Origin: Spirochaetia bacterium
GTDB taxonomy: Bacteria; Spirochaetota; Spirochaetia; UBA9216
DNA length: 64,000 nucleotides
Direction of reading: 5' to 3'
NCBI GenBank assembly: GCA_963675665.1
Contig: OY776510.1
Location: 1,952,001-2,016,000, forward strand
Shown: positions 423 through 25,911 of the stretch, piece by piece
How positions within the stretch are numbered: position 1 is the first letter of the stretch
Layout of the letters: every line of letters starts with the position of its first letter
Program-made: the position numbers and the translations under genes
The notes under the pieces: generated by a model
Database searches by the model: none
Seen by the model: only the letters and a program-made list of their open reading frames with translations
Told to the model about the DNA's origin: nothing

Positions 423-2240
423 CTATTTAATCAGGGGAAATTTTACAGTAAATCTGGTTCCGCCTTTAGGTATGTTTTCTGCTGTAATTTCCCCTTTAAA
501 TTTTGTGATGGTATTGTAGCTGATATACAGCCCCATACCCATGCTCTGATTTCTTTTTTTATTGGAGGAGTAGAACGGCATGAATATAGTATTCATTTTC
601 CCCTCTTCAATACCGGTTCCCGTATCTTCAAAAATGATCGCTACTTTATCATGTTCCTTATCGCTGTATTTGGTGCTGATGAGAAGTTCGCCTCCGTCCG
701 GCATGGCTTCTATTGCATTGCGGATTAGATTGAGAAATACCTGTCTTATTTCTGTCTTGCTGGCATAAATTTCAAAAATCTGTTTTGAATCATCAACAAT
801 AATTCTGACATTACTTTTCTTTGCATTGAATGTTAGAAGCATTACAACTCTTAGGAGCAGATCCGTAACATTGAAAACTTCAAGAGGGGCGTTCTCTTCT
901 GTTGAGAAACCCATCAGGTTGCTGATAGTCTGGGTGATAACCTTGATCTCATCTTCAATTATTTCAATATCAGCTGTAAGTGAAGTTTCATTACAGTTAT
1001 ATTTCATAATCTCAATGATATTTCTGATTATCCCCAGAGGATGATTGATTTCATGAGCAACACCAGCCGCAAGCATCCCGACAGAAGCAAGTTTTTCATT
1101 CTGGATAATATGTTCTCTGAGTGATTCTTCTTCGGTAGTGTCTGTAAGTATAAGAATCTTCCCGATAGAGTTATTATCTTCCATTATCGAAAATGAAGTT
1201 ATATTTGCTATACGTTTGATTCCGTTGAAGAATATCTGGGTTTTAACTGTCTTTGGAGTTGCATCTGAATTCATCAGCGATGTTTCATACTCTTTGGGAA
1301 CGGTAAGAAGCGCCCTCATGGGTCGGTTAAGCAATTGGGAGGTTTTAATCTGAAAGTAATTTTCGGCATGCAGATTCAGAAATTTAATATTGTAGTTATT
1401 GTCGACAGCGATAAGTACTACAGGCAGATCTATCAAAATGGCCTGATTGTATTTTATCAGGTTATAAAAATCTTTATTTGATGTGATCGTATTATGATTC
1501 AGAACATGGCTGTAGAGAATTTTAAGCAGATTATATTTGTCAAGATTGCCGTAAAGATCTGTAAGTATTATTTCACCCTGTCTCAATACAGAAAGATTTG
1601 TCGTAATCGGCGGAATGTAATCAATATGATTTATAAGAAGCAGGATTACGCCTCCGTTTGAAGCGAGTGTCTTTATTATTGCAATAGTCTTGTTGAAATT
1701 ATCAGCTGTCAGTTTGGACAGCACTTCATCAAGTATAAGAACTTTAGGTTTGCAGAAAATGGATATAAGTATTTCCAGAAAAATCTTTTCTGATTCGCTC
1801 AAACTGCCGATTGGCGTCTCTGCAGTAAAATCAGTATCGTAATCTTTAAGAAATTTATTCACCTCTATATTATATGATTTTGAGTCAAAGACCTTGCTGT
1901 ATTTTTTAATCTGGATATAAATGAAAAATTGTTCGCCTACGGTTATGTTTTCAAGAAGAAATCTGCTGTCGGTTATTACTTCAATGCCCAGCCTTCTGGA
2001 TTCTTTTATTGTAAGATTTCTGTAGGATTTGCTGCCGATTCTTATGCGGCCAGTTGATGCTTTCAGACTGCCTTTAAGTATATTGCTGATCAGACTTTTA
2101 CCGGATTCCTTTTCTCCAAGAATTGTATGAATATCTCCGGGGTGGAGTATAATATTTAAAGGTTTGAGCTCTGTTTTTTGAGCGTTCTTTTTTTGTGGTA
2201 TATATGTAATATTTTCTATTGAAATATCGTCTTTGTTCAT
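423..2240 (-). CDS. Soluble sensor histidine kinase with N-terminal degenerate sugar-ABC ATPase domain (ABC-PAS-HisKA-HATPase_c)
   Basis: N-terminus: 'GDIHTILGEKESGKS' (Walker A-like), 'VLILDE' (Walker B), 'VLRQGEI'. Middle is PAS-like. C-terminus: H-box 'AGVAHEINHPL', N-box 'NLIRNAIEA', G1 'DTGTGI', F-box 'IFMPF', G2 'GMGL'. No hydrophobic TM stretch. Confidence 0.85.
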   Translation of the reverse strand: MNKDDISIENITYIPQKKNAQKTELKPLNIILHPGDIHTILGEKESGKSLISNILKGSLKASTGRIRIGSKSYRNLTIKESRRLGIEVITDSRFLLENITVGEQFFIYIQIKKYSKVFDSKSYNIEVNKFLKDYDTDFTAETPIGSLSESEKIFLEILISIFCKPKVLILDEVLSKLTADNFNKTIAIIKTLASNGGVILLLINHIDYIPPITTNLSVLRQGEIILTDLYGNLDKYNLLKILYSHVLNHNTITSNKDFYNLIKYNQAILIDLPVVLIAVDNNYNIKFLNLHAENYFQIKTSQLLNRPMRALLTVPKEYETSLMNSDATPKTVKTQIFFNGIKRIANITSFSIMEDNNSIGKILILTDTTEEESLREHIIQNEKLASVGMLAAGVAHEINHPLGIIRNIIEIMKYNCNETSLTADIEIIEDEIKVITQTISNLMGFSTEENAPLEVFNVTDLLLRVVMLLTFNAKKSNVRIIVDDSKQIFEIYASKTEIRQVFLNLIRNAIEAMPDGGELLISTKYSDKEHDKVAIIFEDTGTGIEEGKMNTIFMPFYSSNKKRNQSMGMGLYISYNTITKFKGEITAENIPKGGTRFTVKFPLIK

Positions 2241-3574
2241 ACATCGACCTTTTTAAGAGAAATCCTGTACCTGGTGATTTTCCTGTAAAGGGTAGTTCTG
2301 CTGATTCCAAGAGCTTTTGCAGTATCGATTTTGTTGTAATTATACTTCTGCAGAGCCAGTTCAATTCTCTCTCTATCAATTTCAGGTTCAGTTTCAATCG
2401 GGTTGAACTCCCTGGTTTTTACAGCAGGTTTCATGAATTCCGGAAGGCTGTCGACCCCTATAGTATCGTTCAGTGAAGTAGCGCAGGAATATGAAATAAT
2501 ATTTATCAGTTCGCGAATATTTCCAGGCCAGTCGTAATCCATCAGCTTGCCGAAGACATCGTCCTTAATGAAGATCTCTTTCTGGTAATCCCTGTTGTAT
2601 TTATCAACAATATTTTTTACCAGAAGCGGAATGTCGTCTTTACGCTCTCGCAGCGGAGGTATTGTGAAGATTCCGGTATTTAACCTGTAGAAAAGATCTT
2701 CCCTGAATGAATTCTGCTGTACCAGGGTATAAAGGTCCTTATTTGTAGCTGCAATAAACCTGACATCAACTTTAATTATTTCCTTGCCTCCGATTCTTCG
2801 CAGTTCCTTGTTTTGTATTGCGCGCAGGATCTTTGCCTGAAGCGCCATCGACATATCGCCAAGCTCATCAAGAAATAATGAGCTGTTATGTGAGCGCTCA
2901 AAAATTCCCTTATACTGTTTGTCTGCGCCGGTAAAAGCGCCTCTGTCATGTCCGAAAAGTTCATTATCAAGCAGTGATTCCGGAAAGGCGGCGCAGTTTA
3001 TTTTCTGCAGCTGCTGATTCCTCCTTAGTGAATTTGAATGAATGAATTCGGCAAGGAGCTCTTTTCCGGTGCCGCTTTCACCGTTAATAAGTGCCGGCAG
3101 ATCTGTGGAAGCATATAAGGAGGCTTTTTCAAGAAGTTCCAGCATCTTCCGGTTTCTGGTAATTATCCCGTGCGTATGCGAGAAGTATTTTTGAAGTTCG
3201 AACTGTTCGATATTATTATTGCAGTACTTCTCAATCAGGCTTACAAGGTGCTCAATTGAAATAGGCTTCTGTATATAGTCTACCGCACCGGCCTGCATGG
3301 ATATTACCGCTGTTGAGATGGTGCCGTAGGCCGTAATCATGATTACAGGAATTCTGGGATATTTGTCGGCAAATTTTAAAAGCAGATCCATTCCTGATTC
3401 TTCACCGAGCATAATATCAAGAAGTATCATATCTATTTGTTTATCCAACAGAATATTAAAAGCCGAACTGCCGTTTAATGCGCTGAAAGCATTATATCCC
3501 CTTATTTTTAATAATCTGGAAAGCGATATATTATGCATCTCCTGATCGTCGACGATGAGTATGTTCTGTTTCAT
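2237..3574 (-). CDS. NtrC-family sigma54-dependent response regulator (REC-AAA+-HTH_8)
   Basis: 'ILIVDD...LLDIML...QKP' receiver, 'GESGTGKE', 'GAFTGA', 'WPGNIREL', 'ALGISRTTLYRK'. ATG at 3574 follows an AGGAG RBS. ATGA overlap with the kinase start. Confidence 0.93.
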   Translation of the reverse strand: MKQNILIVDDQEMHNISLSRLLKIRGYNAFSALNGSSAFNILLDKQIDMILLDIMLGEESGMDLLLKFADKYPRIPVIMITAYGTISTAVISMQAGAVDYIQKPISIEHLVSLIEKYCNNNIEQFELQKYFSHTHGIITRNRKMLELLEKASLYASTDLPALINGESGTGKELLAEFIHSNSLRRNQQLQKINCAAFPESLLDNELFGHDRGAFTGADKQYKGIFERSHNSSLFLDELGDMSMALQAKILRAIQNKELRRIGGKEIIKVDVRFIAATNKDLYTLVQQNSFREDLFYRLNTGIFTIPPLRERKDDIPLLVKNIVDKYNRDYQKEIFIKDDVFGKLMDYDWPGNIRELINIISYSCATSLNDTIGVDSLPEFMKPAVKTREFNPIETEPEIDRERIELALQKYNYNKIDTAKALGISRTTLYRKITRYRISLKKVDV

Positions 3575-3584
3575 TAAATCCTCC

Positions 3585-3648
3585 TGAAACAATAATGTTT
3601 CACTTTGTGGTACATTATTGTTACGGTTGGTGGTACATTATTGTACCA
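3585..3648. promoter_or_regulatory. Three tandem palindromic sites at 23-bp period (putative enhancer/UAS for the adjacent NtrC-type activator)
   Basis: TGAAACA-ATAA-TGTTTCA (3585), TGGTACA-TTAT-TGTTACG (3608), TGGTACA-TTAT-TGTACCA (3631), about 130-190 bp upstream of the sigma54 promoter. Confidence 0.7.
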
Positions 3649-3774
3649 CTTTAACATTGAATTCAAATTTATAAAAGTAAAATGTTTAGCTGTTCCAAAT
3701 AAAAGGTTAAGTAATTTCATAATATATAAGGCATTATAAATTTACTTGTGTATTGTGTTGTATAAAACCGACGA

Positions 3775-3790
3775 TGGCATGTTTGTTGCT
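3775..3790 (+). promoter_or_regulatory. sigma54 (-24/-12) promoter of the polyol ABC/dehydrogenase operon
   Basis: TGGCAT-GTTTG-TTGCT; GG (3776-3777) and GC (3788-3789) are separated by exactly 10 nt. Confidence 0.82.
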
Positions 3791-3877: not shown

Positions 3878-5167
3878 ATGAAATTAAGAAAGCAGTTGGT
3901 TCTTTTATTATGCTTTCTGTTGCTCGGAGCCGTCGTCTTTGCGACCGGTGATCAGGAAAGCAGCTCTGCTGATACAGCAGCAGCCGATTCAGATCTTCAT
4001 GAGATCTACCGGATCCTTCCGAAAGTACCTTTGTCAGGTGTTTTTGATCCTAACATGAAAGACCGATCCGGAATAGAAAAAGCATTTCCTGTTAAACCTA
4101 ATGATCCGGACAACATCGTAATTGGCTGGTCTGAAATAACACTTGCAAATCCCTGGTTTGTAGGCGTTTCGGATGAAGCACATCGTCTGGCTGAAAAATA
4201 CGGATACGAGTTGAAATTTCTTGTTGCTGATTACGATATTCAGAGACAGAGTCAGCACATTGATACTTTCATTACTCAGGATGTTGATATTATTGTTGTT
4301 GACCCGGTTGATATAATGGCTCCTGCTGCAGATATCAAGAGAGCTGTAGATGCCGGTATTCCTACGATATGTATAGGAACAGTACCGGACTATTCTGCTC
4401 CGATTCTCACAACTGTGATTCCCAATCCTTTTGAAAACGGATTTGCATCCGGTGAGTATATCGGTAAAACGTGGAGTGTTAATGAAGAAATCAATGCCGG
4501 GTATATCATCGGCGTTATGGGCAGTTCTACATCTGAAAGTCGGGGTTGTGGAGCAGTTTCCGGTATAGTTTATGGCAGGGCTCAGAAGCTGGGCGTTGAT
4601 ATGAGCAGAGAAGACGCCATGCTTCTGGGCTATAATCTGTTTGAAGAAATAAAAACAAAAGGTAAATTTTCCTATCCTAAACTTAAATTCAATGTTCTCG
4701 CCTGGGGTGTTGGTTCATGGACTGATGAAGGCGGAATGACAGCGGCCGAAGATATGATTACTGCTCATAAGGAAGATATGAATCTTATATTGGGTGGAAA
4801 TGATTTTATGGCAATGGGCGCTCTAAAGGCTGTTACCAACAATGGTCTTAAATCCCAGATTAAAGTAGCCGCCTGTGGGGCTGACGGGTTCAGGGAAGCG
4901 CTTGAACTGATTAAATCGGGAGACCTTATGTGTACTGGTCCATTTGCCGGAACAGCAGTTGGTGCGGCTGCAGTTGAACTGATTCACAAGATATTTGCTG
5001 AAGGTTATGACGCGGGTAATATGCCGATGGGTTCGTATTTCCCTGCTTCCGTAATTTCTCCGGAAACTATTGATGATTATTATGATCCGGACACTTCTAA
5101 TCCGTTTTATAAGCTGCAGCCTGTTCTTTTCAGATCCATTCCTGAAATACTGGCCAGCGGGAAATAA
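3878..5167 (+). CDS. Sugar ABC transporter substrate-binding protein (RbsB/Peripla_BP_4 family, extended)
   Basis: Signal peptide; 'NPWFV', 'VDIIVVDP', 'NDFMAMGA', 'GADG'; AGGAG RBS. Confidence 0.88.
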   Translation: MKLRKQLVLLLCFLLLGAVVFATGDQESSSADTAAADSDLHEIYRILPKVPLSGVFDPNMKDRSGIEKAFPVKPNDPDNIVIGWSEITLANPWFVGVSDEAHRLAEKYGYELKFLVADYDIQRQSQHIDTFITQDVDIIVVDPVDIMAPAADIKRAVDAGIPTICIGTVPDYSAPILTTVIPNPFENGFASGEYIGKTWSVNEEINAGYIIGVMGSSTSESRGCGAVSGIVYGRAQKLGVDMSREDAMLLGYNLFEEIKTKGKFSYPKLKFNVLAWGVGSWTDEGGMTAAEDMITAHKEDMNLILGGNDFMAMGALKAVTNNGLKSQIKVAACGADGFREALELIKSGDLMCTGPFAGTAVGAAAVELIHKIFAEGYDAGNMPMGSYFPASVISPETIDDYYDPDTSNPFYKLQPVLFRSIPEILASGK

Positions 5168-5180
5168 TTGCAGTTTTTTG

Positions 5181-5211
5181 GAGTTCCGGCTGTAAATGCC
5201 GGAACTCTTTT
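5181..5211 (+). terminator. Intercistronic hairpin after SBP gene
   Basis: gagttccggc-tgtaaat-gccggaactc followed by tttt. Confidence 0.6.
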
Positions 5212-5231
5212 GCAGGCAGGAGATTTTAGTT

Positions 5232-6752
5232 ATGGGAGATTCAGCAATGTACAATGAAACAATCAACTTTGTTGAAATGCGGGACATCTGTAAGCATTTC
5301 GGCGGTGTACAGGCTTTAAATAAGGTTTCATTCAGTGCCGGTAAAGGCGAAGTGCATGCTTTAATGGGAGAGAACGGCGCAGGGAAGTCTACCCTAATGA
5401 AAATTTTATCGGGGGCTCATTTAAAGGATTCCGGAGAGATAAAATTAGACAATGAAGTCGTTGATATCAATAGTCCCAGATGCAGTCACGAAAATGGAAT
5501 ATCCATCATATACCAGGAATTTACCCTTGCAAGGGATTTGACTGTTGCTGAGAATATTTTTATAGACAATCTTGGGAAAGGCCGTTCAATTATCGACTGG
5601 AAAACTCTGAATGCCAAAGCAGCAAAACTGCTTAACAAACTTGGATTCAATGATATTAATGTATCCAGGCCTGTTTCTGAACTGTCGGTCGGATATCAGC
5701 AGGTTGTGGAAATCTGCAAAGCTTTGTCCCGGGATTCCAAAGTAATTATTTTTGACGAACCGACTGCTGTTCTGACGGTAAATGAAGTCACAAAGCTTTT
5801 CGAGATAATCAATACGCTGAAGAAGCATGATGTATGCATTATTTATATCTCTCACAGACTGGAAGAAATATTTGAAATCTGTGATCGTATTACGGTTCTT
5901 AAAGACGGCGGATATGTCGATACAGTTTCAGTTAAAGATACAACCAACAATGCTCTCGTTAGAATGATGATTGGGCGTGACCTTAAAGAGTTTTTCCCAC
6001 CCCGAAATGTAAAAATAGGAGAAACGATCCTTTCGGTAAATAATCTTTCCGCCGGCAAAGCGGTTAGGGACGTATCATTTGAACTTCGCAAAGGTGAAGT
6101 CCTCGGATTTAACGGGCTTGTCGGGGCAGGCCGGACTGAAACAATGCGGGCTATATTCGGAGCAGACAGAATTGATTGCGGAGAAATTTACCTCAGAAAC
6201 AAGCTTGTAAAAATAAAGTCTCCAAAAGAGGCTGTTAAAATGGGTTTGGGCATGCTGCCTGAAGACAGAAAAAATCAGGGAGTTTTATTGGAGCAGTCGG
6301 TACGTGTGAATGCATCATTAAGCTTTCTCAACAGAATCAGCAATTCATTCGGTTTTATTGACGGAAAGAAAGAAAAAGAAATTGTAAATGATTTAATGAA
6401 AAAACTTTCCGTCAAAGCAGAGTCAATCGATATTGAGACTTCAAGTCTTTCAGGCGGAAACCAGCAGAAGGTTTCGCTGATGAAATGGCTCGGTTCAGGC
6501 TGTGATATTTTAATACTGGATGAACCTACACGCGGAGTTGATGTAGGGGCGAAAATAGAAATATATAAAGTAATAAATAAATTAGCTGAAGAAGGAGTGG
6601 CCATAATTATGATCTCATCAGAATTACCTGAAGTTATCGGGATGAGCGACAGGGCAATAATAATGAGACAGGGTGTGGTAATGGGTGAATGTGCTGAAGA
6701 TACTCTTACAGAGCACGGATGCATAGAACTCGCAATGGGAGTAAATGTATGA
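5232..6752 (+). CDS. Sugar ABC transporter ATP-binding protein (CUT2, RbsA/MglA type, two NBDs)
   Basis: 'GENGAGKST', 'IYQE', 'FDEPT', 'ISHRLEE', 'LSGGNQQK', 'DEPTRGVDVGAK'. Start is 5232 or 5247. Confidence 0.93.
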   Translation: MGDSAMYNETINFVEMRDICKHFGGVQALNKVSFSAGKGEVHALMGENGAGKSTLMKILSGAHLKDSGEIKLDNEVVDINSPRCSHENGISIIYQEFTLARDLTVAENIFIDNLGKGRSIIDWKTLNAKAAKLLNKLGFNDINVSRPVSELSVGYQQVVEICKALSRDSKVIIFDEPTAVLTVNEVTKLFEIINTLKKHDVCIIYISHRLEEIFEICDRITVLKDGGYVDTVSVKDTTNNALVRMMIGRDLKEFFPPRNVKIGETILSVNNLSAGKAVRDVSFELRKGEVLGFNGLVGAGRTETMRAIFGADRIDCGEIYLRNKLVKIKSPKEAVKMGLGMLPEDRKNQGVLLEQSVRVNASLSFLNRISNSFGFIDGKKEKEIVNDLMKKLSVKAESIDIETSSLSGGNQQKVSLMKWLGSGCDILILDEPTRGVDVGAKIEIYKVINKLAEEGVAIIMISSELPEVIGMSDRAIIMRQGVVMGECAEDTLTEHGCIELAMGVNV

Positions 6753-7765
6753 GTACAATAATAAACAGCGAAAGCAAAACAGGCAAAAAAATTGACATTG
6801 GTGCCTTGATAATAAAATATAATGCCTTTTTTATGCTTATAGTATTAATAATTGTATCCAGTTTTTTGTCAAAGTCGTTCCTGACTTCAGGTAATATTCT
6901 GAATATTCTTCGTCAGAACACCCCCCTGATGCTTGCAAGTCTCGGAATGCTTCTGGTAATTCTTACCGGTGGAATTGATCTGGCGGTAGGATCAATTGCA
7001 GCAGTCAGCTGCATGATGGTTTCAATCGCAATAGCCAAATGGAATTTCACGTCGGTTTTCGGACTTGTCCTCGCTATCCTGATTTCGGTATTAGTCGGAT
7101 TCCTTCTGGGTGCAGCCACCGGCTCTCTGGTTGCGTTTATGAGAATGGCTCCTTTTGTCGCTTCACTGTCCATGATGACTATCGGCAGGGGAATTGCATA
7201 CCTTCTGACAAACGGGCAGCCCCTCAGGCTTCCGATGGAACGTACTGCTAGCAATATTCTCAATGCAATAGGAAATTCAAAAGTACCTTTTATAAACCTG
7301 CCGTGGCCTATCCTGATTTCGATTATTGCTATTGTGATTCTGTTTCTGGTGATGAAATACACAACATTCGGCCGGCTGCTGATTGCAACCGGAAGTAATG
7401 AAACAGCCGTCCGCCTGGCAGGAATTACCGTTGAGAAGTATAAATTCTTTTCATATGCAATATGCGGAGGATTGTGTGCAGTATCGGGTATTCTTGTAAC
7501 CAGCCGTGCGGCTATCGGAACGCCTGCAACAGGTTTAAATCTCGAACTTGATGCAATAGCCGCCTGCGTTATCGGCGGGGCAAGCCTTTCCGGAGGAAAA
7601 GGTACCGTTGTAAACACGGTTATAGGCGTGCTGGTTCTGGGTCTGATCGGAAATATTATGAACCTTTTAAGTGTTCCGGCATACCCGCAGCAAATTATCA
7701 AGGGGCTGATAATCATAGTTGCAGTTTTTCTGCAGGGAGTAACTGATAAAAAGACTAGAGTTTAA
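6749..7765 (+). CDS. Sugar ABC transporter permease (RbsC/BPD_transp_2)
   Basis: 'ILTGGIDLAVGS', 'GSNETAVRLAGI', 'ELDAIAACVIGGASLSGGKG'; ATGA overlap with the ATPase. Confidence 0.92.
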   Translation: MSTIINSESKTGKKIDIGALIIKYNAFFMLIVLIIVSSFLSKSFLTSGNILNILRQNTPLMLASLGMLLVILTGGIDLAVGSIAAVSCMMVSIAIAKWNFTSVFGLVLAILISVLVGFLLGAATGSLVAFMRMAPFVASLSMMTIGRGIAYLLTNGQPLRLPMERTASNILNAIGNSKVPFINLPWPILISIIAIVILFLVMKYTTFGRLLIATGSNETAVRLAGITVEKYKFFSYAICGGLCAVSGILVTSRAAIGTPATGLNLELDAIAACVIGGASLSGGKGTVVNTVIGVLVLGLIGNIMNLLSVPAYPQQIIKGLIIIVAVFLQGVTDKKTRV

Positions 7766-7800: not shown

Positions 7801-8331
7801 ATGATTCACGAAAAAGAGGTTGTGAAGGATAGATTGATGGCAACTGCCAAAAGGATGGCTGTTGCCGCCAGAACTGCTCCCAAATGCATGGGAGTAGATA
7901 ATATATTTATTTCCATTCTTGAAGAAGACGAAATTACCGCTGTAGCTGAACATATGCAGAAGATGCACCGTGAAAAAATGGTTCCGGATTATTACATCAG
8001 GGATGCAGAGAATATTATGGCGGTTCAGATTATGCTGCTGATAGGCACAGATTATGTTGCTACCGGAGCTCCCTCCTGCGGCGCCTGCGGTTTTAGAGAT
8101 TGCGGACATAAGGAAAAGGCTGTTCCGTGTGCATTCAATACTGCTGATATGGGTCTCGCTGTCGGGTCTGCAGTCTCGATTGCGGCGGACGACAGAATTG
8201 ATAACCGGATAATGTTTTCTGTAGGCCAGGCGGTTATCGATCTGAAACTTATAGATAAAGATTTGAAGTTTATTTACGGAATACCTTTGAGTATAAGTTC
8301 AAAGAATCCGTTCTTTGACAGAGGCAAATAA
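7801..8331 (+). CDS. DUF2148-family ferredoxin-like protein
   Basis: 'AARTAPK', 'CGACGFRDC', 'DMGLAVGSA', 'DNRIMFSVG', 'GIPLSISSKNPFFDR'. Confidence 0.8.
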   Translation: MIHEKEVVKDRLMATAKRMAVAARTAPKCMGVDNIFISILEEDEITAVAEHMQKMHREKMVPDYYIRDAENIMAVQIMLLIGTDYVATGAPSCGACGFRDCGHKEKAVPCAFNTADMGLAVGSAVSIAADDRIDNRIMFSVGQAVIDLKLIDKDLKFIYGIPLSISSKNPFFDRGK

Positions 8332-8342
8332 CAGAGAGAAAT

Positions 8343-9377
8343 ATGAAGGCATTGGTTCTTGAAAAAAAAGGCGATATCAGGTTGCGGGATATTGATATAG
8401 AAGAAACTCTCGGCCCTGGAGACGTCAGAATATCACCGGTCAGCGTTGGTATCTGCGGCAGTGATATACATTACTATCTCGACGGTGAAATAGGTTCATT
8501 TACTGTCAACGCCCCGATGGTTCTTGGTCATGAGGCTTCCGGTGTAATTATCGAAACCGGTTCGGATGTACATAATCTGAAAGTGGGCGACAGGGTATGT
8601 ATTGAGCCGGGCATTCCTGATTGGTCGGGCAAAGCGTGCAGGGAAGGGTTTTATAATCTCGATCCGGGACTAGTTTTCTGGGCAACTCCGCCGTGGCACG
8701 GTTGTCTACGTGAAAATGTAGTTATGCCTGAATCGCTTGTTTACAGGTTGCCTGATAATGTCGGAAACGAAGAAGGCGCGATGGTTGAACCGCTTGCGGT
8801 CGGGGTACATGCATCGTCAAAGGCGAATATAAAACCGGGCGATATTGCTCTTGTGCTTGGGGCCGGAACAATCGGGTATATGACGGCATTTGCGGCCCTT
8901 GCCTCCGGGTGCAGCCAGGTGATCATTACTGATATTAAACGGGACAGGCTGTCGGCGGCGGAAGAATATGATTCTGTTCTTCCGGTATGCGTTGCCGACT
9001 CGGATCTGTCTGAAATGGTTAACGAAAAGACAGGGAACCGGGGATGCAATATTGTATTTGAAACAACAGGCAGTGCAAGGATTTATGACGATGTTGCTGA
9101 ATATATATGCCCGGGCGGGACATTTATCATAATCGGAACGCCGCCGTGTTCTGTCGGCGTGAATATCGGCGCGCTGCAGGTAAAAGAAGTAACTGTAAAA
9201 CCAATATTCAGGTATGCAAATGTATACGACAGGGCCCTTGCTTTAATCAGCAGCGGACATGTAAACGTTAAACCTCTGATAACCCACCGGTTCGGTTTTA
9301 ATGATAGTGTTGAAGCTTTTAAATTTGCAGCAACCCTGCCTCAGGGTGCAATAAAAACAATGATTAATTTTTCATAA
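8343..9377 (+). CDS. Zn-dependent polyol dehydrogenase (xylitol dehydrogenase/D-xylulose reductase-like)
   Basis: '[10 protein letters not shown]', 'LGHEASG', '[14 protein letters not shown]', 'GAGTIG', 'IFRYANVY'; the structural-Zn Cys cluster is largely absent. Confidence 0.85.
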
Positions 9378-9390
9378 TAAGGAGATTGTA

Positions 9391-10557: not shown

Positions 10558-10569
10558 GGAGCGTGCAGA

Positions 10570-12689: not shown

Positions 12690-12716
12690 TGTACTTTTAT
12701 ATAGGGAGTATATCTG

Positions 12717-16865: not shown

Positions 16866-16885
16866 CAATAAAAAATAATGTTTGT

Positions 16886-16911
16886 ACCTCCCGGATTGCC
16901 GGGAGGTTTTT
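16886..16911 (+). terminator. Intercistronic hairpin after SBP gene
   Basis: acctcccgg-attg-ccgggaggt followed by tttt. Confidence 0.6.
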
Positions 16912-16927
16912 CACCAAAGGAGACAGG

Positions 16928-18439: not shown

Positions 18440-19407
18440 TGTCGGGAGTGATATCGGTTTCAAACAGTTCCAAAGAAAAGGTTATAAAAATTATAAATAT
18501 AAAGGGTTTGCCGATTTTGATCGGTTTTATTGTACTTGTCGTGTTGGCAAGTGTGTTATCGCCGTCTTTCCTGCAACCAACTAACCTGTTTAATATTTTA
18601 AGGCAGGTCTCATCCAATTGCATAATAGCAGTCGGCATGACCTTTGTTATCCTGACCGGGGGCATAGATTTATCGGTTGGTTCGATTGTTGCTCTTGCGA
18701 GTGTTCTTGTTGCGCTTGCACAGAATTACGGAATGAACAGTTTTGTAACCGTTATAATCGGTTTAGGCACCGGAGCTTTTTGCGGTTTGTTTAACGGCTT
18801 TATAATTGTAAACAGAAAACTTCAGCCTTTTATTGTTACTCTCGCAACCATGACCATAGCGCGCGGTTTTGCTTATATAATCTCTGGCGGGCGTCCGATT
18901 ATGGGAATCAGCGACAATTTCAGGGTGATTGCAACCAGTTATATTGGGCCTTTGCCGATACCTGCTGTTTACATGATAGTAATTATTGTCCTTTCCTATA
19001 TAGTATTGACCAGAACCTATTGGGGAAGGGCTTATTTTGCAATCGGAGGCAATGAAGAAGCTGCCAGGCTGTCCGGCACCAGGGTAGATCTCTATAAATC
19101 ACTTGCATATGTGTTATCGGGGATGTTGTGTGGGTTTGTTGCTATCACTGTTGTAGCCAGGGTAACTGTCGGAGAACCTATTATTGGTCAGGGTTGGGAA
19201 CTTGATGCTATAGCTGCAGTTGTAATAGGCGGAACATCGCTGTCGGGCGGAGTCGGGGGTGTAATAGGCACTTTAATAGGGGCCCTGATCCTTGGGGTTT
19301 TAAGCAATATATTTAACCTGCTGAATATTTCCGCTTATGTGCAAATGGTTTTTAAAGGCATAATCATACTTGTTGCTGTTCTGGCATCAACAAAGAAGGA
19401 TTCCTGA
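18433..19407 (+). CDS. Sugar ABC transporter permease (RbsC family)
   Basis: 'ILTGGIDLSVGS', 'GGNEEAARLSG', 'WELDAIAAVVIGGTSLSGGVG'. Confidence 0.92.
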   Translation: MLMSGVISVSNSSKEKVIKIINIKGLPILIGFIVLVVLASVLSPSFLQPTNLFNILRQVSSNCIIAVGMTFVILTGGIDLSVGSIVALASVLVALAQNYGMNSFVTVIIGLGTGAFCGLFNGFIIVNRKLQPFIVTLATMTIARGFAYIISGGRPIMGISDNFRVIATSYIGPLPIPAVYMIVIIVLSYIVLTRTYWGRAYFAIGGNEEAARLSGTRVDLYKSLAYVLSGMLCGFVAITVVARVTVGEPIIGQGWELDAIAAVVIGGTSLSGGVGGVIGTLIGALILGVLSNIFNLLNISAYVQMVFKGIIILVAVLASTKKDS

Positions 19408-19425: not shown

Positions 19426-21852
19426 ATGGAAAATATAATCAGCAATGAAGCTTATTTTAAATTGAAAACGGAGTTTTCCGTGCCTTCGGAAAGGTTCACT
19501 GAGCTTAGGGCCAGGTTGCTGGCTGTAAAACCCGAATTGTGCCCGGAGCGTGCACGATATTTGACACAGTCGTTTAAAGAAACAGAGGGCGAACCGTATA
19601 TAATCAGACGGGCAAAGGGTTTCTATAATGTCCTTGCCAATATGTCGTTGTTTATAAATGAAAAAGAACTGTTTGCAGGTAACCAGGCAGGTTCGCTCAG
19701 GGCTTGTCCGTTTTATCCTGAAACGGAAAGTGTATACTTTAAGGAAGAAATTGATCTTTTTCCTGTCAGAGAAAACGATCGTGTTCAGATAAATCCTGAA
19801 GTCAGGGAAGAAGTGCTAAATGAAATCATCCCGTACTGGATTGACAAGAACACGGAAAAGATTTCTCTGAAACGTATTCCTCCGGAAACCCTTGAGTTGA
19901 TAAATGCGCCTCACCAGATCTTTTCTCCCCAGATACATATGAGGGGAAGTCTTGCGCATACTATTGCAGATTATTCCATGGTTCTGGATAAAGGCATACT
20001 TAATATCAGGGAAGAGCTTTTACAAAGGCAAAAAGCCCTGGATTTGACGATACCGGAAAACCTTGAACACTATCATTTTTGCGAAGCAGAAATCATAATT
20101 TGTAATGCGCTTATGCTGCTGGCTTCAAGATACTCCGACCTTGCTTATAAAATGGCTGATGAAGAAACCGATCCCGTCCGTTCGGAAGAGCTTCGTACTA
20201 CAGCTGCAGCATGTGCAAGGGTCCCTGCGTATCCCGTAGAAAGTTTCTTTGAAGCGTTGCAATCCTTCTGGCTTGTTCACCTCGGACTTTATATAGAACA
20301 GAACGGTTTGGCCATTTCGGTAGGACGGTTTGATCAGTATATGTATCCTTACCTGAATGCTGATCTTAAAAATAAAAAAATTACTCTTTCAGAGGCTCAG
20401 GAGTATCTGGATATTTTATGGATTAAATTCACGGAAATAATGAGGGCATATGATCTTAAATCCGCCAGATACTACGGCGGGTTTGCCATATCCGAGAATC
20501 TTGTTCTCGGCGGAATCCTTGAAAACGGGAAAGATGCTACGAACATTCTCTCTTATATGTGCCTTGATTCAGAGTTTAAAACGAGGTTGAGCCAGCCGAA
20601 TGTTGCCGTAAGGATGCATCAGAATATTCCCCGCGCCCTTTTGATAAAGGCATGTAAAATTATAAGAGAGGGCGGCGGAAAACCCGAACTGTTCAATGAT
20701 GACGTCGGTATTCCATTGCTTCTCAGGACCGGCGTCACGCTGGAAGATTCACGCAATTATGATATCTCCGGCTGTGTAGAGCCGGTTCCTCCGGGGACTC
20801 TGGGAATCACGAACGCTTCGATGTCCAACCTTGCAAAGGCGCTGGAGCTTGCCCTTAATAACGGAAAATGCCGTCTGAGCGGAACTCAGATGGGTCCCGT
20901 GACCGGCACGCCCGATAAATTCAAATCAATAGAAGACGTAATATACGCTTTCAGGCAGCAGGTCGAAGCGTATGTAGAGCATATGATTATCGCTATTAAT
21001 ACCATTGAGAGTGTCCACAGGGAGTTTCTGCAGATACCTTTTACTTCGCTTACGCTTACAGGATGTTTAGAGAAGTGTCTTGACGCCACCGCCGGAGGAG
21101 CAATTTATAATTACACAGGACCGCAGGGAGTCGGCGTGGCTGATGTAGCTGACTCTCTTGCCGCAATCCAGAAACTTGTTTTTGAGGATCATTTTATTTC
21201 AATGGATGAACTGAATGCTGCTCTTGATAATAATTTCGAATCATTGCCTGAACTTCTCAATATGGCCCGTAAGGTTCCCAAATACGGTAACGATGATGAT
21301 TATGTCGATCAATATGCATCCGTGATTGCAAAAATTTACTGTGATGCTGTAGAAAAGTATAAAAACCCGAGAGGCGGGGCCTACAGGCCCGGGTTATATC
21401 CGGTATCGGCCAATGTGCCTTTGGGGGAAGCTGTAGGTGCGCTTCCTTCAGGCAGGAAAGCCGGAACTCCTCTTGCTGACGGGATATCCCCGGAACATTT
21501 TATGGACACAAACGGGCCTACGGCGGTTATGAGATCGGCTGCAAAAATGGATCATACTATCGTTTCAAACGGCACGCTTCTTAATCAAAAATTTGATCCG
21601 GTTTATTTAAAAACCGATGAGAACATAAACCGGTTGGTGGATATGATCAGGGCGTATTTTGATCTTGGCGGGTGGCACGTTCAATTCAATGTTGTAAACA
21701 AGGAAACACTGTTGAAGGCCCAGGCTAATCCCGGGGAATATTCAGGACTCCTGGTCAGGGTAGCAGGATACAGCGCTTTCTTTGCCGAGTTAAGCGATGT
21801 TATCCAGAATGATATAATCGACCGAACAGAGTTCTCAGAAATTATAAACTAG
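19426..21852 (+). CDS. Glycyl radical enzyme, PFL2/glycerol-dehydratase (eliminase) class, substrate unknown
   Basis: Cys loop 'SGCVEP', glycyl loop 'LLVRVAGYS', 'GRFDQY', 'PKYGND', 'PLADGISP', 'HVQFNVV'; 808 aa; lacks the CC pair of true PFL. Confidence 0.9.
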   Translation: MENIISNEAYFKLKTEFSVPSERFTELRARLLAVKPELCPERARYLTQSFKETEGEPYIIRRAKGFYNVLANMSLFINEKELFAGNQAGSLRACPFYPETESVYFKEEIDLFPVRENDRVQINPEVREEVLNEIIPYWIDKNTEKISLKRIPPETLELINAPHQIFSPQIHMRGSLAHTIADYSMVLDKGILNIREELLQRQKALDLTIPENLEHYHFCEAEIIICNALMLLASRYSDLAYKMADEETDPVRSEELRTTAAACARVPAYPVESFFEALQSFWLVHLGLYIEQNGLAISVGRFDQYMYPYLNADLKNKKITLSEAQEYLDILWIKFTEIMRAYDLKSARYYGGFAISENLVLGGILENGKDATNILSYMCLDSEFKTRLSQPNVAVRMHQNIPRALLIKACKIIREGGGKPELFNDDVGIPLLLRTGVTLEDSRNYDISGCVEPVPPGTLGITNASMSNLAKALELALNNGKCRLSGTQMGPVTGTPDKFKSIEDVIYAFRQQVEAYVEHMIIAINTIESVHREFLQIPFTSLTLTGCLEKCLDATAGGAIYNYTGPQGVGVADVADSLAAIQKLVFEDHFISMDELNAALDNNFESLPELLNMARKVPKYGNDDDYVDQYASVIAKIYCDAVEKYKNPRGGAYRPGLYPVSANVPLGEAVGALPSGRKAGTPLADGISPEHFMDTNGPTAVMRSAAKMDHTIVSNGTLLNQKFDPVYLKTDENINRLVDMIRAYFDLGGWHVQFNVVNKETLLKAQANPGEYSGLLVRVAGYSAFFAELSDVIQNDIIDRTEFSEIIN

Positions 21853-22779
21853 ATGAATGGTAATTACGGTATAATTTCGGAGATACAACGATTCTGTATT
21901 CATGACGGGAAGGGTTTAAGGACCACAGTATTTTTAAAAGGCTGTCCGCTTAGATGTGCATGGTGTTCAAATCCTGAAACACAGTCAGCAGAAAAAGAAC
22001 TGATGTATTTTCAAAAAAACTGCGTCGGGTGCGGGCGTTGCATTAACAGTTGTCCAAATAATGCCTTAAGTTTCGATAATCAAAGGGTTGTTGTCGAAAA
22101 GGATAAATGCGATCTATGCGGGAAATGTGAAAAAAGCTGTTTTTATAATGCGCTTAAAATCAAAGGCGAAGAAATGGAAGTCTTTGAAATAATTGAGCTG
22201 CTGATGAAGGATTTCAAGTTTTTTGAAAAGAGCGGCGGAGGCCTGACGATTTCGGGAGGCGAACCTACATCACAACCGGAGTTTACAAAAAAGTTATTAA
22301 TCACTGCTGGAAAGCTGGGAATAAATACAGCTATTGAGACCTGCGCCCTGTGCAGGCAGGAAACCTTGCTGGATATTGCTGAATATTGTGATGAAATATT
22401 TATTGATCTGAAAATTGCGGATGCGGTGGCGCACAGCAAATGGACCGGGGCGGATAACAGGACGATTGTTGAAAATATAAGAATATTATTGAAGACTATG
22501 GCATCCAAAGTAAATATTCGAATTCCTGTGATTGAGGGAATAAATACCGGATATAATGATATTTTTCAAATTTCAAAACTTTTGAAAGATCTTTATTGTG
22601 ATCTTTTACCCAAAGAAATTGTTATAGAGTTAATGCCTTATCATCGTTTGGGCAGCGGCAAGTATGATGCTCTTCAGATGAAATATTCCCTGGAAAATCT
22701 TAAGCCGATGAGTATGGAAAGAATTGAAGATATAAAGAATATTTTTAAAGAAAACGGTATTACAGCCATTACCCCGTAA
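21853..22779 (+). CDS. Glycyl radical enzyme activating protein (radical SAM with 2x[4Fe-4S] insert)
   Basis: 'HDGKGLRTTVFLKGCPLRCAWCSNPE', two CxxCxxCxxxC motifs, 'GGLTISGGEP', 'MPYHRLG'. Confidence 0.93.
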   Translation: MNGNYGIISEIQRFCIHDGKGLRTTVFLKGCPLRCAWCSNPETQSAEKELMYFQKNCVGCGRCINSCPNNALSFDNQRVVVEKDKCDLCGKCEKSCFYNALKIKGEEMEVFEIIELLMKDFKFFEKSGGGLTISGGEPTSQPEFTKKLLITAGKLGINTAIETCALCRQETLLDIAEYCDEIFIDLKIADAVAHSKWTGADNRTIVENIRILLKTMASKVNIRIPVIEGINTGYNDIFQISKLLKDLYCDLLPKEIVIELMPYHRLGSGKYDALQMKYSLENLKPMSMERIEDIKNIFKENGITAITP

Positions 22780-22780
22780 T

Positions 22781-24595
22781 TTACGGGGTAATAACAGGGA
22801 GCTCGATCAGAAATTGAGCTCCCTTCCCGATATCCCTGCCGATTGTGATGTTCCCCTCATGTTTTGTGATAATGCTATGGATAATTGACAAACCCATACC
22901 CAGATGGGTCCCGGTTTTTGTTTTTGTCGAGAAAAAAGGAAGAAAAATATCGCTTATAATATCTGTCGAAATTCCGGGGCCATTATCCTCAAATGTTAAT
23001 TTTAGTTTATCATTAGTATTCTCAAGAGTGATATTGATCTCTCCATTTCCTGTCAGAACATCATTACTGTTTCTTATTAAATTTAACATAATTTGTTTAT
23101 ATTCGTTTTGGGTTATCGGACAAAATGCAAGATCCTCAAGTTTATTTAGAAGATTGATTCTCAACCCGTCATATTGCGGATTATGTTTGATAAAGCTTAT
23201 TATTTGGGCTGTTGTTTCATAAATATTGACATAGTCGTTCTTTGTCGGGTTTTTATCCGAAAAGGATATAAGGTTGTCGACTACATTCTCAATGAAATCC
23301 AACTCCTCTCTTATATGATCATACAGTTCAATATCTTCAGACTTTGTTCTTTTAAACAACAGCAGGTTAGAGAAACTGTTCAGGGCCTCGAGAGAGTTGT
23401 TAATTTCATGGGCAATGCCTGCGGACAGAATACCAATTGAGGAAAGATTCTGTGCGAGGATAAGTTTTTCCTGCAAAGTCACAAGTTCAGAAACATCTTC
23501 AATTAAAAAAATATTCCCGATATTCATACTGTCTTCTGTAATCGGTAAAATTTTTATATTTACACTCGTCTGTCTGTTCCCTATTATCATCGGGACATGG
23601 TAAAAACTGTGAATTTGATTTGTATTTGATGATTCTTCAATTATATGAAGAAATGAATTATTATTCTTTGCAAAAAAATCATTAAGCCGGCTTTTCAGGT
23701 AGTCTTCATTTTCAATATTAAAATATTTCTTGAAATAGTTGTTTACCATTATAATTTCCATTTGACGATTTGTAACAATTATATTTGACGGAAGGCTTTC
23801 AAGAATTGCTTCGTTGAATTTCAGGAAATGATAAAATGACTTATTTAATTCTTCCATATTATATGTAAGCGAAGGATTTGTGTATGTAAGTCTGATAAGA
23901 TTAATTTTGTCAATGCTGTCTATTTTATCCGAAAAGATTATTTCGCCGTTTTTTATTATACTGACTCTTTCGGCGATATCGTAAATATAACTTATTTTTG
24001 TTGTAAAGAATAATACTGATCCACCTTTTTGGGAGTAATCCTTAAGTATCTCGTAAACCCTGACAAGATCCGCCGAGTTGATTTTGGAAAACATCTCGTC
24101 AATAATCAGCAATTCAGGAACAGGTTCCAGCTTGTTTAATAATTCAAGAATTGCAATATCTGATTGATTAAGATTTTTAAGCTGTGCAAAGGGGTCGATA
24201 TCAAAACCATACTTGTGAAAGTCTCTTTTTGCCATACTCACAAATCTTTTTCTGCTGCTGAAGCCTATTATATGTTTGCTAAACTTGTTGTGGTACAGAT
24301 ACTCCCCGGCTATAAAGGCCTGATTAAGAATAAGATGCTGGGGTACCATGGTTATTGACGGTTTATTTTTTATTCTGGCAAGTTTAGAATGGGTTTGCCC
24401 CCGGTATGTAAATGTTCCGGAAGAATTCAGCAATTGATTTTTCAGCAGTTTTCCCAGCAATGTTTTTCCGGCTCCGGATTCTCCGATTATTGCATGAACC
24501 TCGCCCCTGTTTAAATCAAGATTTATTATATTCAGATACATTTTATCTTTAAAATGGACTTTTATATTGTTCAGACTTAATAACGGATTAATCAT
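22781..24595 (-). CDS. Second soluble ABC-ATPase-like/PAS/histidine kinase fusion
   Basis: 'GEVHAIIGESGAGKT', 'VPQH', 'LLIIDE', 'IIKNGEI'; PAS-like middle; 'AGIAHEINNSL', 'NLIRNS', 'DNGPGI', 'IFLPFFST', 'GMGLSI'. No TM. ATG 24595 overlaps the regulator stop (ATGA); an alternative start is at 24610. Confidence 0.85.
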   Translation of the reverse strand: MINPLLSLNNIKVHFKDKMYLNIINLDLNRGEVHAIIGESGAGKTLLGKLLKNQLLNSSGTFTYRGQTHSKLARIKNKPSITMVPQHLILNQAFIAGEYLYHNKFSKHIIGFSSRKRFVSMAKRDFHKYGFDIDPFAQLKNLNQSDIAILELLNKLEPVPELLIIDEMFSKINSADLVRVYEILKDYSQKGGSVLFFTTKISYIYDIAERVSIIKNGEIIFSDKIDSIDKINLIRLTYTNPSLTYNMEELNKSFYHFLKFNEAILESLPSNIIVTNRQMEIIMVNNYFKKYFNIENEDYLKSRLNDFFAKNNNSFLHIIEESSNTNQIHSFYHVPMIIGNRQTSVNIKILPITEDSMNIGNIFLIEDVSELVTLQEKLILAQNLSSIGILSAGIAHEINNSLEALNSFSNLLLFKRTKSEDIELYDHIREELDFIENVVDNLISFSDKNPTKNDYVNIYETTAQIISFIKHNPQYDGLRINLLNKLEDLAFCPITQNEYKQIMLNLIRNSNDVLTGNGEINITLENTNDKLKLTFEDNGPGISTDIISDIFLPFFSTKTKTGTHLGMGLSIIHSIITKHEGNITIGRDIGKGAQFLIELPVITP

Positions 24596-25911
24596 TTTTT
24601 CTCTTGGCATGGAATCTTATATTTATCGATTTTATTGTAAAGGGTTTTTCTGGATATTCCCAATTCTTCTGCTGTCCGTTTCTTGTTAAATTTATTTTTC
24701 CTCAACGAGTTGAAGATTGTATTGTATTCAACATTGGCGATAGGGCTGGGATTAAAATTGGAGTTCTTTAAACTGTATAAATTGTGCGGCAGGTCTGATA
24801 TTTTGATATTATTATCAGTACAAACCGCAGAAGCATATTCAATAACATTTTTGAGTTCGCGAATATTCCCCGGCCAATGATATTTACAAAGCAGTTTTAT
24901 AACTTCCTTGTCAATTGAAATACTATTGTCTGATATTTCAATAAAATGAGTAATCAGCAGCGGTATGTCCTCACGTCTTTCCCTTAAAGGGGGAATCTCA
25001 AATATTACAGTATTTAACCTGAAATATAGGTCCTCCCGGAATGTGTTATTATGCATCATCTGTTGTATATTTTTATTTGTTGCCGCTATAAATCTTGTAT
25101 TTATTTTGATAATTTCATCTCCGCCAAGCCTTCTTATTTCATTGTTTTGCAAAGTTCGTAGTATCTTTGCTTGGATATCCAGAGACATATCGCCTATCTC
25201 ATCAAGAAACAGGCTGCTGTTATCAGCACGTTCGAATACGCCTTTATATTGTCTGTCTGCACCTGTGAAAGCTCCTCTTTCATGTCCGAAAAGTTCATTG
25301 TCGAGCAGGTTCTCCTGAAAAGCAGCGCAATTAATTTTCAGTATTCTGTTTTCTTTTCGGGGAGAATGAAAGTGCAGTTTCTCGGCTATATTTTCTTTTC
25401 CGACACCATTTTCGCCCAAGATAAGGACAGGTAGGTTTGTCGGCCCTATCTTTTCAATCCTGCTGATTATTTCAAGCATTCTTGGGTTCTGGGTAATTAT
25501 CCGGGTTTCAAATGAGTCTTCAGATGTTTTTTTATCAATACTTTTAAAATTGTTTAGTATGGAACTTTTAACTGTATTATAAAGCTGATCGTATTTAATC
25601 GGTTTCTGAATATAATCATATGCCCCGTATTTCATTGCGTCAACAGCAGACACTACAGTTCCAAAGCCGGTTATTATGATGACAGGTACTGACGGAATCA
25701 TTTTTTTTAATTTTTTCAGGACCTCTATGCCGTTCTCATCGCCCAACATTAAATCAAGAAGAATACAATGCGGATTAAATTTGATAATACGATGAAATAC
25801 ACTTTTAGAAGAGAGCGCGTATTCCGCTTGATATCCATTTTTTTCGAAGTTTTTCTTCAGGCCTATACAAATATTTTCTTTATCATCTATAATAAAAAGT
25901 CTGTATTTCAT
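24592..25911 (-). CDS. NtrC-family sigma54-dependent response regulator
   Basis: REC 'IIDD...LLDLML...QKP', 'GENGVGKE', 'GAFTGA', 'WPGNIREL', 'LGISRKTLY'. Confidence 0.93.
   Translation of the reverse strand: MKYRLFIIDDKENICIGLKKNFEKNGYQAEYALSSKSVFHRIIKFNPHCILLDLMLGDENGIEVLKKLKKMIPSVPVIIITGFGTVVSAVDAMKYGAYDYIQKPIKYDQLYNTVKSSILNNFKSIDKKTSEDSFETRIITQNPRMLEIISRIEKIGPTNLPVLILGENGVGKENIAEKLHFHSPRKENRILKINCAAFQENLLDNELFGHERGAFTGADRQYKGVFERADNSSLFLDEIGDMSLDIQAKILRTLQNNEIRRLGGDEIIKINTRFIAATNKNIQQMMHNNTFREDLYFRLNTVIFEIPPLRERREDIPLLITHFIEISDNSISIDKEVIKLLCKYHWPGNIRELKNVIEYASAVCTDNNIKISDLPHNLYSLKNSNFNPSPIANVEYNTIFNSLRKNKFNKKRTAEELGISRKTLYNKIDKYKIPCQEKK

Follow-up and report, generated by a model that had tools for sequence, protein, structure and literature searches.

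A re-assorting activator and ABC-kinase cassette beside CUT2 importers in a Spirochaetia genome, with a proposed mode of transporter-linked signalling

Introduction

The 64,000-nt stretch analyzed here (the window; positions 1,952,001 to 2,016,000 of contig OY776510.1, assembly GCA_963675665.1, from a Spirochaetia bacterium) contains two adjacent CUT2 importer operons, each associated with a gene for an NtrC-type sigma54 activator followed by one for a histidine kinase with an N-terminal ATP-binding cassette (ABC) nucleotide-binding domain (NBD). The initial annotation regarded the arrangement as a reusable regulatory module in which specificity is supplied by the transporter; as described below, the first of these proposals is supported and the second is not. 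The genome holding the window is denoted G000, G001 and G004 are relatives, and mapped loci carry L numbers.

Architecture of the kinase and activator pairs

The two diverged pairs reported in the initial annotation are real (Table 1). Both kinases (605 aa and 609 aa, 28% identical) contain an N-terminal ABC_tran and a C-terminal HATPase_c domain by Pfam, whose calls are based on the two window proteins and seven relatives, with HisKA called additionally in kinase 1 and PAS_9 in kinase 2; both activators have receiver, sigma54-interaction, and Fis helix-turn-helix (HTH) domains and a GAFTGA motif. The activator 1 frame, with an ATG at 3574 preceded by GGAG, overlaps the start of kinase 1 by 4 nt. 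An AlphaFold model of kinase 1 (135 relatives; mean predicted local distance difference test score (pLDDT) 89.7, predicted template-modelling score (pTM) 0.58) has the domain order NBD, helical linker, PAS, DHp, and CA, and the PDB matches listed by Foldseek for this model are PAS-kinases or ABC NBDs, none named as both. The ABC part resembles the first half of CUT2 ATPases (e.g. YtfR, LsrA, AlsA, AraG; NCBIfam).

NBD and PAS are the sole input domains of the window kinases (Pfam and AlphaFold model), and the maximum 19-residue hydropathy exceeds 1.9 in 4/135 rows of the family; the kinases are predicted to be soluble, with neither a membrane nor a periplasmic sensor. The best NCBIfam matches are AtoS for the kinases (196 and 184 bits vs a cut-off of 646) and AtoC for the activators (375 and 387 vs 714), and neither pair reaches the curated NCBIfam cut-offs of the AtoS/AtoC, NtrB/NtrC, or ZraS/ZraR equivalogs. 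The H-box (HEIN) histidine is retained in all 133 full-length kinase relatives. Between modules 1 and 2 the activators are 47% identical, the ATPases 43%, the permeases 40%, and the substrate-binding proteins (SBPs) 20%, and with identities this low the doubling in the window is not a recent duplication.

Table 1. Features of the two modules, in window coordinates.
Feature	Position	Strand	Basis
Kinase 1: CUT2 NBD1-like ABC domain (residues ~6-248), linker helix, PAS, DHp (His396), CA; predicted soluble	423..2240	-	Pfam, AF2 model, motifs, hydropathy
NtrC-type sigma54 activator 1: receiver Asp53, GAFTGA, Fis HTH	2237..3574	-	Pfam, motifs
Candidate enhancer, operon 1: two tandem inverted repeats GTACA-N4-TGT[T/A]AC, ~-165 and -142 from sigma54 site	3608..3650	.	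sequence
Sigma54 -24/-12 site, operon 1: TGGCA-N6-TTGCT	3775..3790	+	motif scan
CUT2 importer 1: SBP 3878-5167, tandem-NBD ATPase 5196-6752, single permease 6719-7765	3878..7765	+	Pfam, NCBIfam
Cargo 1: DUF2148, Zn-dehydrogenases (8343, 10570, 11643, 13545), Fe-ADH (9391), GolD/DthD-family SDR (12717)	7801..14573	+	
Decayed GH88-like gene between both operons; open reading frame (ORF) to 15387, then coding-like sequence in other frames	14623..15570	+	
Candidate enhancer sites, operon 2: TGTGTA-N5-TTTACA at -125, and neighbours	15680..15735	.	sequence
Sigma54 -24/-12 site, operon 2: TGGTA-N6-TTGCA	15805..15820	+	motif scan
CUT2 importer 2: SBP 15858-16865, ATPase 16928-18439, single permease 18433-19407	15858..19407	+	Pfam, NCBIfam
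Cargo 2: glycyl radical enzyme of glycerol/diol dehydratase group, and activase	19426..22779	+	TIGR01774, TIGR02494, motifs
Kinase 2: kinase 1-like architecture, His401; convergent on operon 2	22781..24610	-	Pfam, hydropathy
NtrC-type sigma54 activator 2: receiver Asp53, GAFTGA	24592..25911	-	Pfam, motifs

A cassette re-assorted among importers

The genome encodes eight proteins with both NBD and kinase parts, and an NtrC-type gene lies directly ahead of each. A CUT2 importer is divergent in six cases and convergent in one (window pair 2), and the eighth kinase has no importer. In a quick IQ-TREE phylogeny seven of the eight kinase NBDs form one clade (support 99, starred) and the eighth joins at 92 with one long-branch ATPase, and no kinase NBD is sister to the NBD1 of its neighbour. 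The NBDs thus cluster together, and we reject the notion that each was copied from the ATPase next to it. FastTree phylogenies of the importers require 16 changes of the kinase-linked label among permeases (130 rows, at least eight changes forced by starred branches) and 18 among ATPases (93 rows, at least 11 forced), vs ~33 and ~30, respectively, when labels are shuffled. The linked importers thus cluster among kin and yet have many origins or losses.

Mantel comparisons of 20 dereplicated modules give correlations between NBD and activator (r=0.70) and between ATPase and permease (0.62), and none between NBD and either ATPase (r=-0.10) or permease (0.05); that between NBD and ATPase is absent at any threshold, such that the co-evolution of kinase NBD with the neighbouring ATPase NBD1, raised in the initial annotation, leaves no signal. 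Direct swaps are also evident. L008 has a permease with 64-66% identity to those of L001 and L130-L132, but the NBDs of these modules are 28-29% identical; L027 and L143, conversely, share 60% identity in the NBD, 35% in the permease, and 18% in the SBP. Duplication of regulators and importer as one block is therefore rejected at depth by the Mantel comparisons, trees, and swaps, although close kin do show block inheritance (r=0.28 between NBD and permease across all 40 modules). Since the NBD tracks the activator and not the importer, and direct swaps are found, the inherited unit is activator plus kinase, with importer and cargo exchangeable. These comparisons show a cassette (NtrC activator, then ABC-PAS-kinase) of single origin that is re-assorted among importers, and with its eight copies, single NBD clade, polyphyletic importers, and swaps it merits the description of a reusable module.

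Distribution and partner importers

Mapping of such modules beyond the window, as envisaged in the initial annotation, locates 44 kinases outside the genome (L011 being dropped as a duplicate of L123) in addition to the eight within it. A profile search gives 150 best matches, 133 of them 560-660 aa long, and the full-length family comprises at least 133 clusters at 50% identity. Matches are present in 15/40 relatives, in at least 11/400 genomes of the phylum (a lower bound, with three candidates scored per genome), and in KSB3/Moduliflexota and Planctomycetota contigs. An activator lies directly upstream of 42 of the 44 kinases, and the other two are cut by contig ends. An importer is found close to 36 kinases, in divergent orientation for 31 and downstream for 5; of the remaining eight, four are on short or cut contigs, two represent the radical-enzyme case described below, and two (L138, L141) have none in ~19 kb, the L141 gene called as an SBP being a LacI-type regulator. 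L138 (4096-10718) and L141 (4704-10704) represent a kinase clade with a divergent sigma54 target other than an importer, namely an 824-aa flavoprotein-like oxidoreductase and a 586-aa lipoprotein-like protein.

The linked importers are biased towards a single permease gene. The genome has 70 CUT2 ATPases, and excluding seven without a linked permease, single permeases are found in 7/7 kinase-linked importers vs 27/56 others (Fisher p=0.0097), although a single permease is not by itself distinctive, given those 27. Elsewhere, 32 of the 36 importers are of the single-permease type, a few of these calls being near contig ends, and two further contigs contain three more kinases, each adjoining a single-permease importer. 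Among dereplicated modules the proportion is 16/20 (binomial p 0.004-0.015 vs the genome's base rate, kin not being independent). The pairing with homodimeric-permease CUT2 importers reported in the initial annotation is thus a strong bias and not a rule, with four two-permease (L012, L015, L021, L122) and two importer-less exceptions. Importer context and sigma54 sites are conserved in Spirochaetota and KSB3/Moduliflexota loci, and importer context in two Planctomycetota loci.

Tandem modules also occur at L160 (1-14829, co-directional) and L027 (1239-15895, back-to-back), with a separate sigma54 site for each importer, so the window is not alone in its doubling. Searches of relatives, metagenomes, and 400 class genomes recovered no orthologous locus for either window module. 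Orthologues of kinase 2 exist as proteins at 65% and 55% identity, their loci not being found: one metagenome scan yielded no relatives, a second gave two distant full-length kinases among 80 loci, and the 400 class genomes had one match, which is not orthologous. In the 49 of those 80 loci that were translated, mostly single-NBD matches, there are two kinases, the rest being ordinary tandem ATPases or fragments, and no NBD1 on another output domain is present, with no search made of longer or shorter proteins. One variant (P0117, 851 aa) has an ABC domain and two HisKA stretches ahead of one HATPase_c.

Sigma54 promoters and candidate enhancers

The initial annotation identified canonical -24/-12 promoters at 3775 and 15805, which lie 103 nt and 53 nt, respectively, upstream of the SBP start codons. 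The motif has 3 matches across the window vs 3.15 expected by chance and was rejected as stand-alone evidence; it is position and enrichment that support these sites. Using a simple score devised for this analysis with a threshold of 6 or more, qualifying sites are upstream of 6/7 kinase-linked CUT2 operons by an automatic rule, 6/63 other CUT2 operons, and 5/2000 random windows. An SBP start that had been called too early hid the seventh linked operon from this rule, and an intergenic scan recovers its site (7/7). Among 37 divergent regions the threshold is reached on the target strand in 33 and on the opposite strand in none. The genome also encodes rpoN (above cut-off), and with regulatory genes and sites both in place the two operons are predicted to be under NtrC-type sigma54 activation.

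Candidate enhancers precede both promoters (Table 1), and that of operon 2 is not clearly matched by the position weight matrix (PWM) of the paralogous enhancer (p=0.15). At 25975-26000, upstream of activator 2, there is a half-site, ATTATTGTAC, in common with the operon 1 enhancer, reflecting either cross-regulation or chance. In two-component systems the segment following the H-box and receiver helix 1 form the specificity surface. Kinase 1 has HEINHPLGII here, the same as its paralogue at 4865923, and kinase 2 has HEINNSLEAL, resembling the paralogue at 4312120; receiver helix 1 segments match in these same paralogue pairs, and the candidate enhancers of operons 1 and 2 differ. Because the DHp and receiver specificity segments differ between the pairs and co-vary with the nearest paralogue, insulation between pairs 1 and 2 is probable. 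The module at 4865923 has two further strong sigma54 sites nearby, at G000:C1:4860363(-) and 4870313(-), ahead of dehydrogenase genes, and its pair may control several operons.

The eighth kinase and a distant importer

The eighth kinase (G000:C1:4312120) faces a sigma54 operon encoding two dehydrogenases, a glycyl radical enzyme, and an activase, and is the nearest paralogue of window kinase 2 (support 96, starred), the glycyl radical enzymes being 56% identical. A query with window SBP 2 identified a single-permease operon (ATPase-permease-SBP-transketolase-AFOR) with a conserved sigma54 site at G000:C1:4366732-4374212, i.e. 46 kb from the kinase and radical-enzyme locus (4312120-4320915); the other loci concerned are L147, L148, and L149. 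In G001 and G004 the two operons are one gene apart, and in G005 they are on separate short contigs. The importer has no adjacent regulator, and in G000 no other listed activator is closer than that of the eighth kinase. Co-regulation of this importer with the radical-enzyme operon is plausible, and the two probably constitute one polyol regulon that is split in G000. The eighth-kinase enhancer was also compared with window operon 2, and no clear shared enhancer was seen. Two other CUT2 operons (G000:C1:1379910 and 2422487) have identical NBD1s and near-identical permeases, with a sigma54 site upstream of only one.

How might the kinase sense?

NBD1 of a CUT2 sugar-importer ATPase was fused once to a soluble NtrB-like kinase, and the cassette of NtrC activator and ABC-PAS-kinase was then duplicated and re-attached to many importer lineages. 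We propose that the kinase dimer presents two identical NBD1-like domains, able to bind ATP and unable as a pair to hydrolyze it. These domains would dock on a homodimeric permease at its pair of identical coupling helices, so that some permease dimers would carry the kinase rather than their usual ATPase. A substrate-loaded binding protein would alter the permease, and the change would pass via the conserved NBD-to-PAS helix to the kinase, which would phosphorylate its own activator and so fire the sigma54 promoter of importer and catabolic cargo in a positive feedback. We tentatively favour docking of the kinase on the permease as a transporter-coupled sensor, at a little short of an even chance, and regard as possible, with some doubt, the further proposal of a portable adaptor in which the kinase dimer replaces the motor, and binding protein, permease, and kinase constitute a non-transporting sensor. 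A kinase dimer matching the permease dimer in symmetry would explain the single-permease bias, and a grip on conserved coupling helices would permit re-attachment without long co-evolution, which would account for the eight copies and the swaps across phyla.

The nucleotide site is in keeping with this. Among 133 relatives the Walker A Lys is present in 127, Ser/Thr in 127, the Q-loop Gln in 100, the Walker B Asp in 126 and Glu in 115, and the H-switch His in 85; both window kinases have the Walker A Lys and Walker B Asp-Glu. The family NBD lacks the LSGGQ signature and the D-loop Pro; in all eight genome kinases the signature is degenerate and the Pro lost, with the H-switch His in 3/8. Because the ATP-binding half is retained and LSGGQ and D-loop are lost, established ABC chemistry suggests that an NBD homodimer should bind ATP and not hydrolyze it. 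Three orthologues are nearly identical in the NBD-to-PAS linker, which fits a role as transmission element. A complex predicted from two copies of permease 1 and the kinase 1 NBD scores 0.43 vs 0.01 for the best control (the controls do not include a non-cognate permease), with contact agreement between runs of at least 98% and a partner pLDDT of at least 73. The mark used is reached by 116/157 solved pairs and 2/215 mismatched pairs, with 18 of the 157 solved pairs and both mismatches reaching it at scores of 0.60 or less, and no solved chain resembles permease 1 in sequence at E<=0.01. The prediction thus lends weak support to a kinase 1 NBD-permease 1 complex. With the kinase core controlled, NBD and PAS have partial correlations with the permease (r 0.15-0.29, p 0.008-0.15, uncorrected for 12 tests) and no residual correlation with ATPase or SBP.

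Several observations weigh against docking. The Mantel correlations of NBD with ATPase and permease are flat, four kinases adjoin two-permease importers, and L138 and L141 have no importer in ~19 kb. Kinase 1 lacks the Q-loop Gln and H-switch His, and kinase 2 lacks the His. The complex score may reflect generic NBD-permease likeness and gives no information on specificity, and among single-permease importers no permease column tells linked from unlinked ones beyond 12 permutations, so that a kinase's choice among the genome's 34 single-permease importers is not accounted for. For the distant importer, the PWM from the eighth kinase's enzyme operon gives p values of 0.78, 0.08, 0.09, and 0.015 at its promoter. 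The proposal in the initial annotation that the transporter supplies specificity thus finds little backing, with neither NBD-ATPase co-evolution nor a permease signature, at most a weak signal between input domains and permease, and weak support from the predicted complex.

Alternatively, sensing may be cytoplasmic, with the importer merely delivering the inducer, the PAS domain binding the imported sugar or polyol or its first metabolite, and the NBD acting as a gauge of ATP (energy), a dimerization module, or a non-specific anchor near importers. Free re-assortment without co-evolution, kinases lacking an adjacent importer, retention of nucleotide-binding residues, and the variability of PAS, the most variable region (mean identity 26% vs 34% for the NBD), are all as expected. 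However, it leaves unexplained the CUT2 NBD1 input and the near-constant, single-permease-biased CUT2 partner, PAS and SBP distances do not run in parallel (r 0.07-0.12), and the docking prediction, weak as it is, places the NBD on the permease; we consider cytoplasmic sensing the main rival, though less likely than docking.

The kinase NBD might instead pair in trans with NBD2 of the tandem ATPase, which would supply LSGGQ, and read the ATPase cycle as a flux sensor. The kinase does keep exactly the Walker A/B/H half that NBD1 contributes, and LSGGNQQK is intact on NBD2 of 7/7 cognate ATPases in the genome, but NBD1, being joined covalently to NBD2, should win over the kinase NBD, the absence of NBD-ATPase correlation extends to every threshold, and the single-permease bias is unexplained. 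One ATPase loop column distinguishes linked from unlinked ATPases (Lys in 0/24 vs 15/26, p=4e-6, below 12 permuted minima), but it is poorly aligned and confounded by genome composition, and we do not accept it as a signature. Pairing with NBD2 is thus improbable. Least credible is that the NBD is a vestige of fusion to a neighbouring gene, the kinase responding to an unrelated cue beside a passive importer. Loss of the signature and D-loop, and decay of several catalytic residues in single copies, would fit this, but the fusion is full-length in 133 clusters at 50% identity, 127 of them keeping the Walker A Lys, orthologues have a near-invariant NBD-PAS linker, and importer context and sigma54 sites persist across phyla.

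Relationship to known systems

The modules appear to be a variant of transporter-linked two-component signalling, with the mechanism proposed above. BceS is membrane-embedded and has no NBD, and the Bce regulator is OmpR-type, whereas the kinases here are soluble, have their own NBD, and act through a sigma54 activator; likewise the Bce transporter exports antimicrobial peptides, whereas the partners here are SBP-dependent CUT2 importers. Co-evolution of transporter and two-component system was reportedly described for Bce modules by Dintner in 2011, unlike the situation here (Mantel r -0.10 and 0.05). The likeness is that in BceRS-BceAB of Firmicutes a kinase without an extracellular sensor adjoins an ABC transporter whose genes are induced, and BceAB interacts directly with BceS (accessible part of PMC6978683). 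Similarly, in PstSCAB-PhoU-PhoR/PhoB an ABC importer controls a kinase lacking a canonical periplasmic sensor, with the importer genes as output (same part of PMC6978683). Pst requires a PhoU adaptor contacting PstB, whereas the present modules have no adaptor gene, a soluble kinase with its own NBD, and a sigma54 activator as output; no PhoU adaptor or Pst phosphate importer genes are present among the window proteins scanned. If the docking model is true, the modules would resemble BceRS-BceAB and Pst-PhoU-PhoR in working.

CbrA/CrbS also fuse a transporter part to a histidine kinase, CrbS having an SLC5 symporter connected via a STAC domain (accessible part of PMC5715377). The fused part there is a membrane domain, whereas the kinases here carry a soluble ABC NBD and leave the membrane subunit to a separate gene. 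The input domain shares the NBD1 pattern of the CUT2 ATPases RbsA, AraG, MglA, and YtfR (Walker A intact, signature degenerate), but differs from these tandem ATPases in having one NBD and no NBD2, in loss of the D-loop, and in the PAS-DHp-CA fusion. RbsA-type ATPases have one degenerate site and RbsAC2B stoichiometry, acting on an RbsC2 homodimer (accessible part of PMC11466899). The PAS-DHp-CA core and REC-AAA-HTH activator are as in NtrB/NtrC, AtoS/AtoC, and ZraS/ZraR, the difference being the ABC NBD input. We found no description of an ABC NBD-histidine kinase fusion in the literature searched (including the accessible part of PMC12316311; most subscription papers and supplements lie outside the search).

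Layout of the window and neighbouring genes

The same four parts are present in both modules, as in the initial annotation, but the layouts differ. Pair 1 is divergent from operon 1, whereas pair 2 is ~7 kb downstream of the operon 2 promoter and tail-to-tail with the activase gene (stops at 22779 and 22781). Directly upstream of pair 2, in the same orientation, is a two-permease CUT2 operon without a sigma54 site. Because no orthologous locus was recovered, the pairing of kinase 2 with operon 2 rests on the sigma54 site, adjacency, and paralogy rather than on synteny.

The order SBP-ATPase-single permease in both operons and the cargoes of six dehydrogenases and a glycyl radical enzyme agree with the initial annotation (Table 1). 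The cargo 1 SDR scores 298 bits vs a GolD/DthD cut-off of 286, and operon 1 probably oxidizes a polyol or sugar. The cargo 2 enzyme has intact Cys and Gly-radical motifs, a TIGR01774 score of 772 bits vs a cut-off of 678, and best PDB matches to 1r8w and 5i2a, and is adjoined by a TIGR02494 activase; it does not reach the cut-offs of the named equivalogs HypD, HpsG, HpfG, CutC, and PflD. Operon 2 probably dehydrates a polyol by radical chemistry. Matches of the SBPs in the PDB are generic ribose-type only and give no substrate clue, and a literature search linking glycyl radical enzyme and polyol gave zero matches. The GH88-like gene at 14623-15570 contains frameshifts and stops and is a probable pseudogene.

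The other CUT2 operons in the window (26693-31286 and 31428-36066) have two permeases each and sigma54 scores of 4 and none, as initially annotated, but they are not near GntR or YesMN regulators; the closest regulators are activator 2 and a TetR (37429). YesMN (44798-48191) adjoins a lone binding protein, one GntR (57553) is next to a CUT1 operon, and another (49233) is next to an AFOR/transketolase operon. The YesM/YesN-type pair and the lone YtfQ-like binding protein (44798-49185) likely constitute a binding-protein-assisted three-component sensor, a conventional counterpart of the ABC kinase. The segment at 49233-54422 encodes GntR, AFOR, a split transketolase, and an SDR; because its AFOR and transketolase share 64-81% identity with the orthologues that relatives have of the distant sigma54 transketolase-AFOR operon, it represents a paralogous pathway under different control. 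Two ORFs (26153-26677, 174 aa, and 43446-44681, 411 aa) match nothing in Pfam or NCBIfam at the thresholds applied; the former closes a two-permease CUT2 operon.

Significance

What is added here is a test of modularity, the enrichment of single permeases and sigma54 sites, the negative co-evolution result, and the link between an "importer-less" kinase and a "kinase-less" importer. The ABC NBD represents a new class of input domain for histidine kinases, with at least 133 full-length clusters at 50% identity, and the modules offer a concrete, testable form of transporter-coupled signalling. Unlike in Bce, regulator and transporter re-assort, which raises the question of how specificity is achieved with eight kinases and 70 CUT2 ATPases per cell. 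The modules also point to uncharacterized catabolic operons, including dehydrogenase clusters and glycyl radical enzymes, and if docking is true the cassette could be used as a plug-in sensor for sugar importers.

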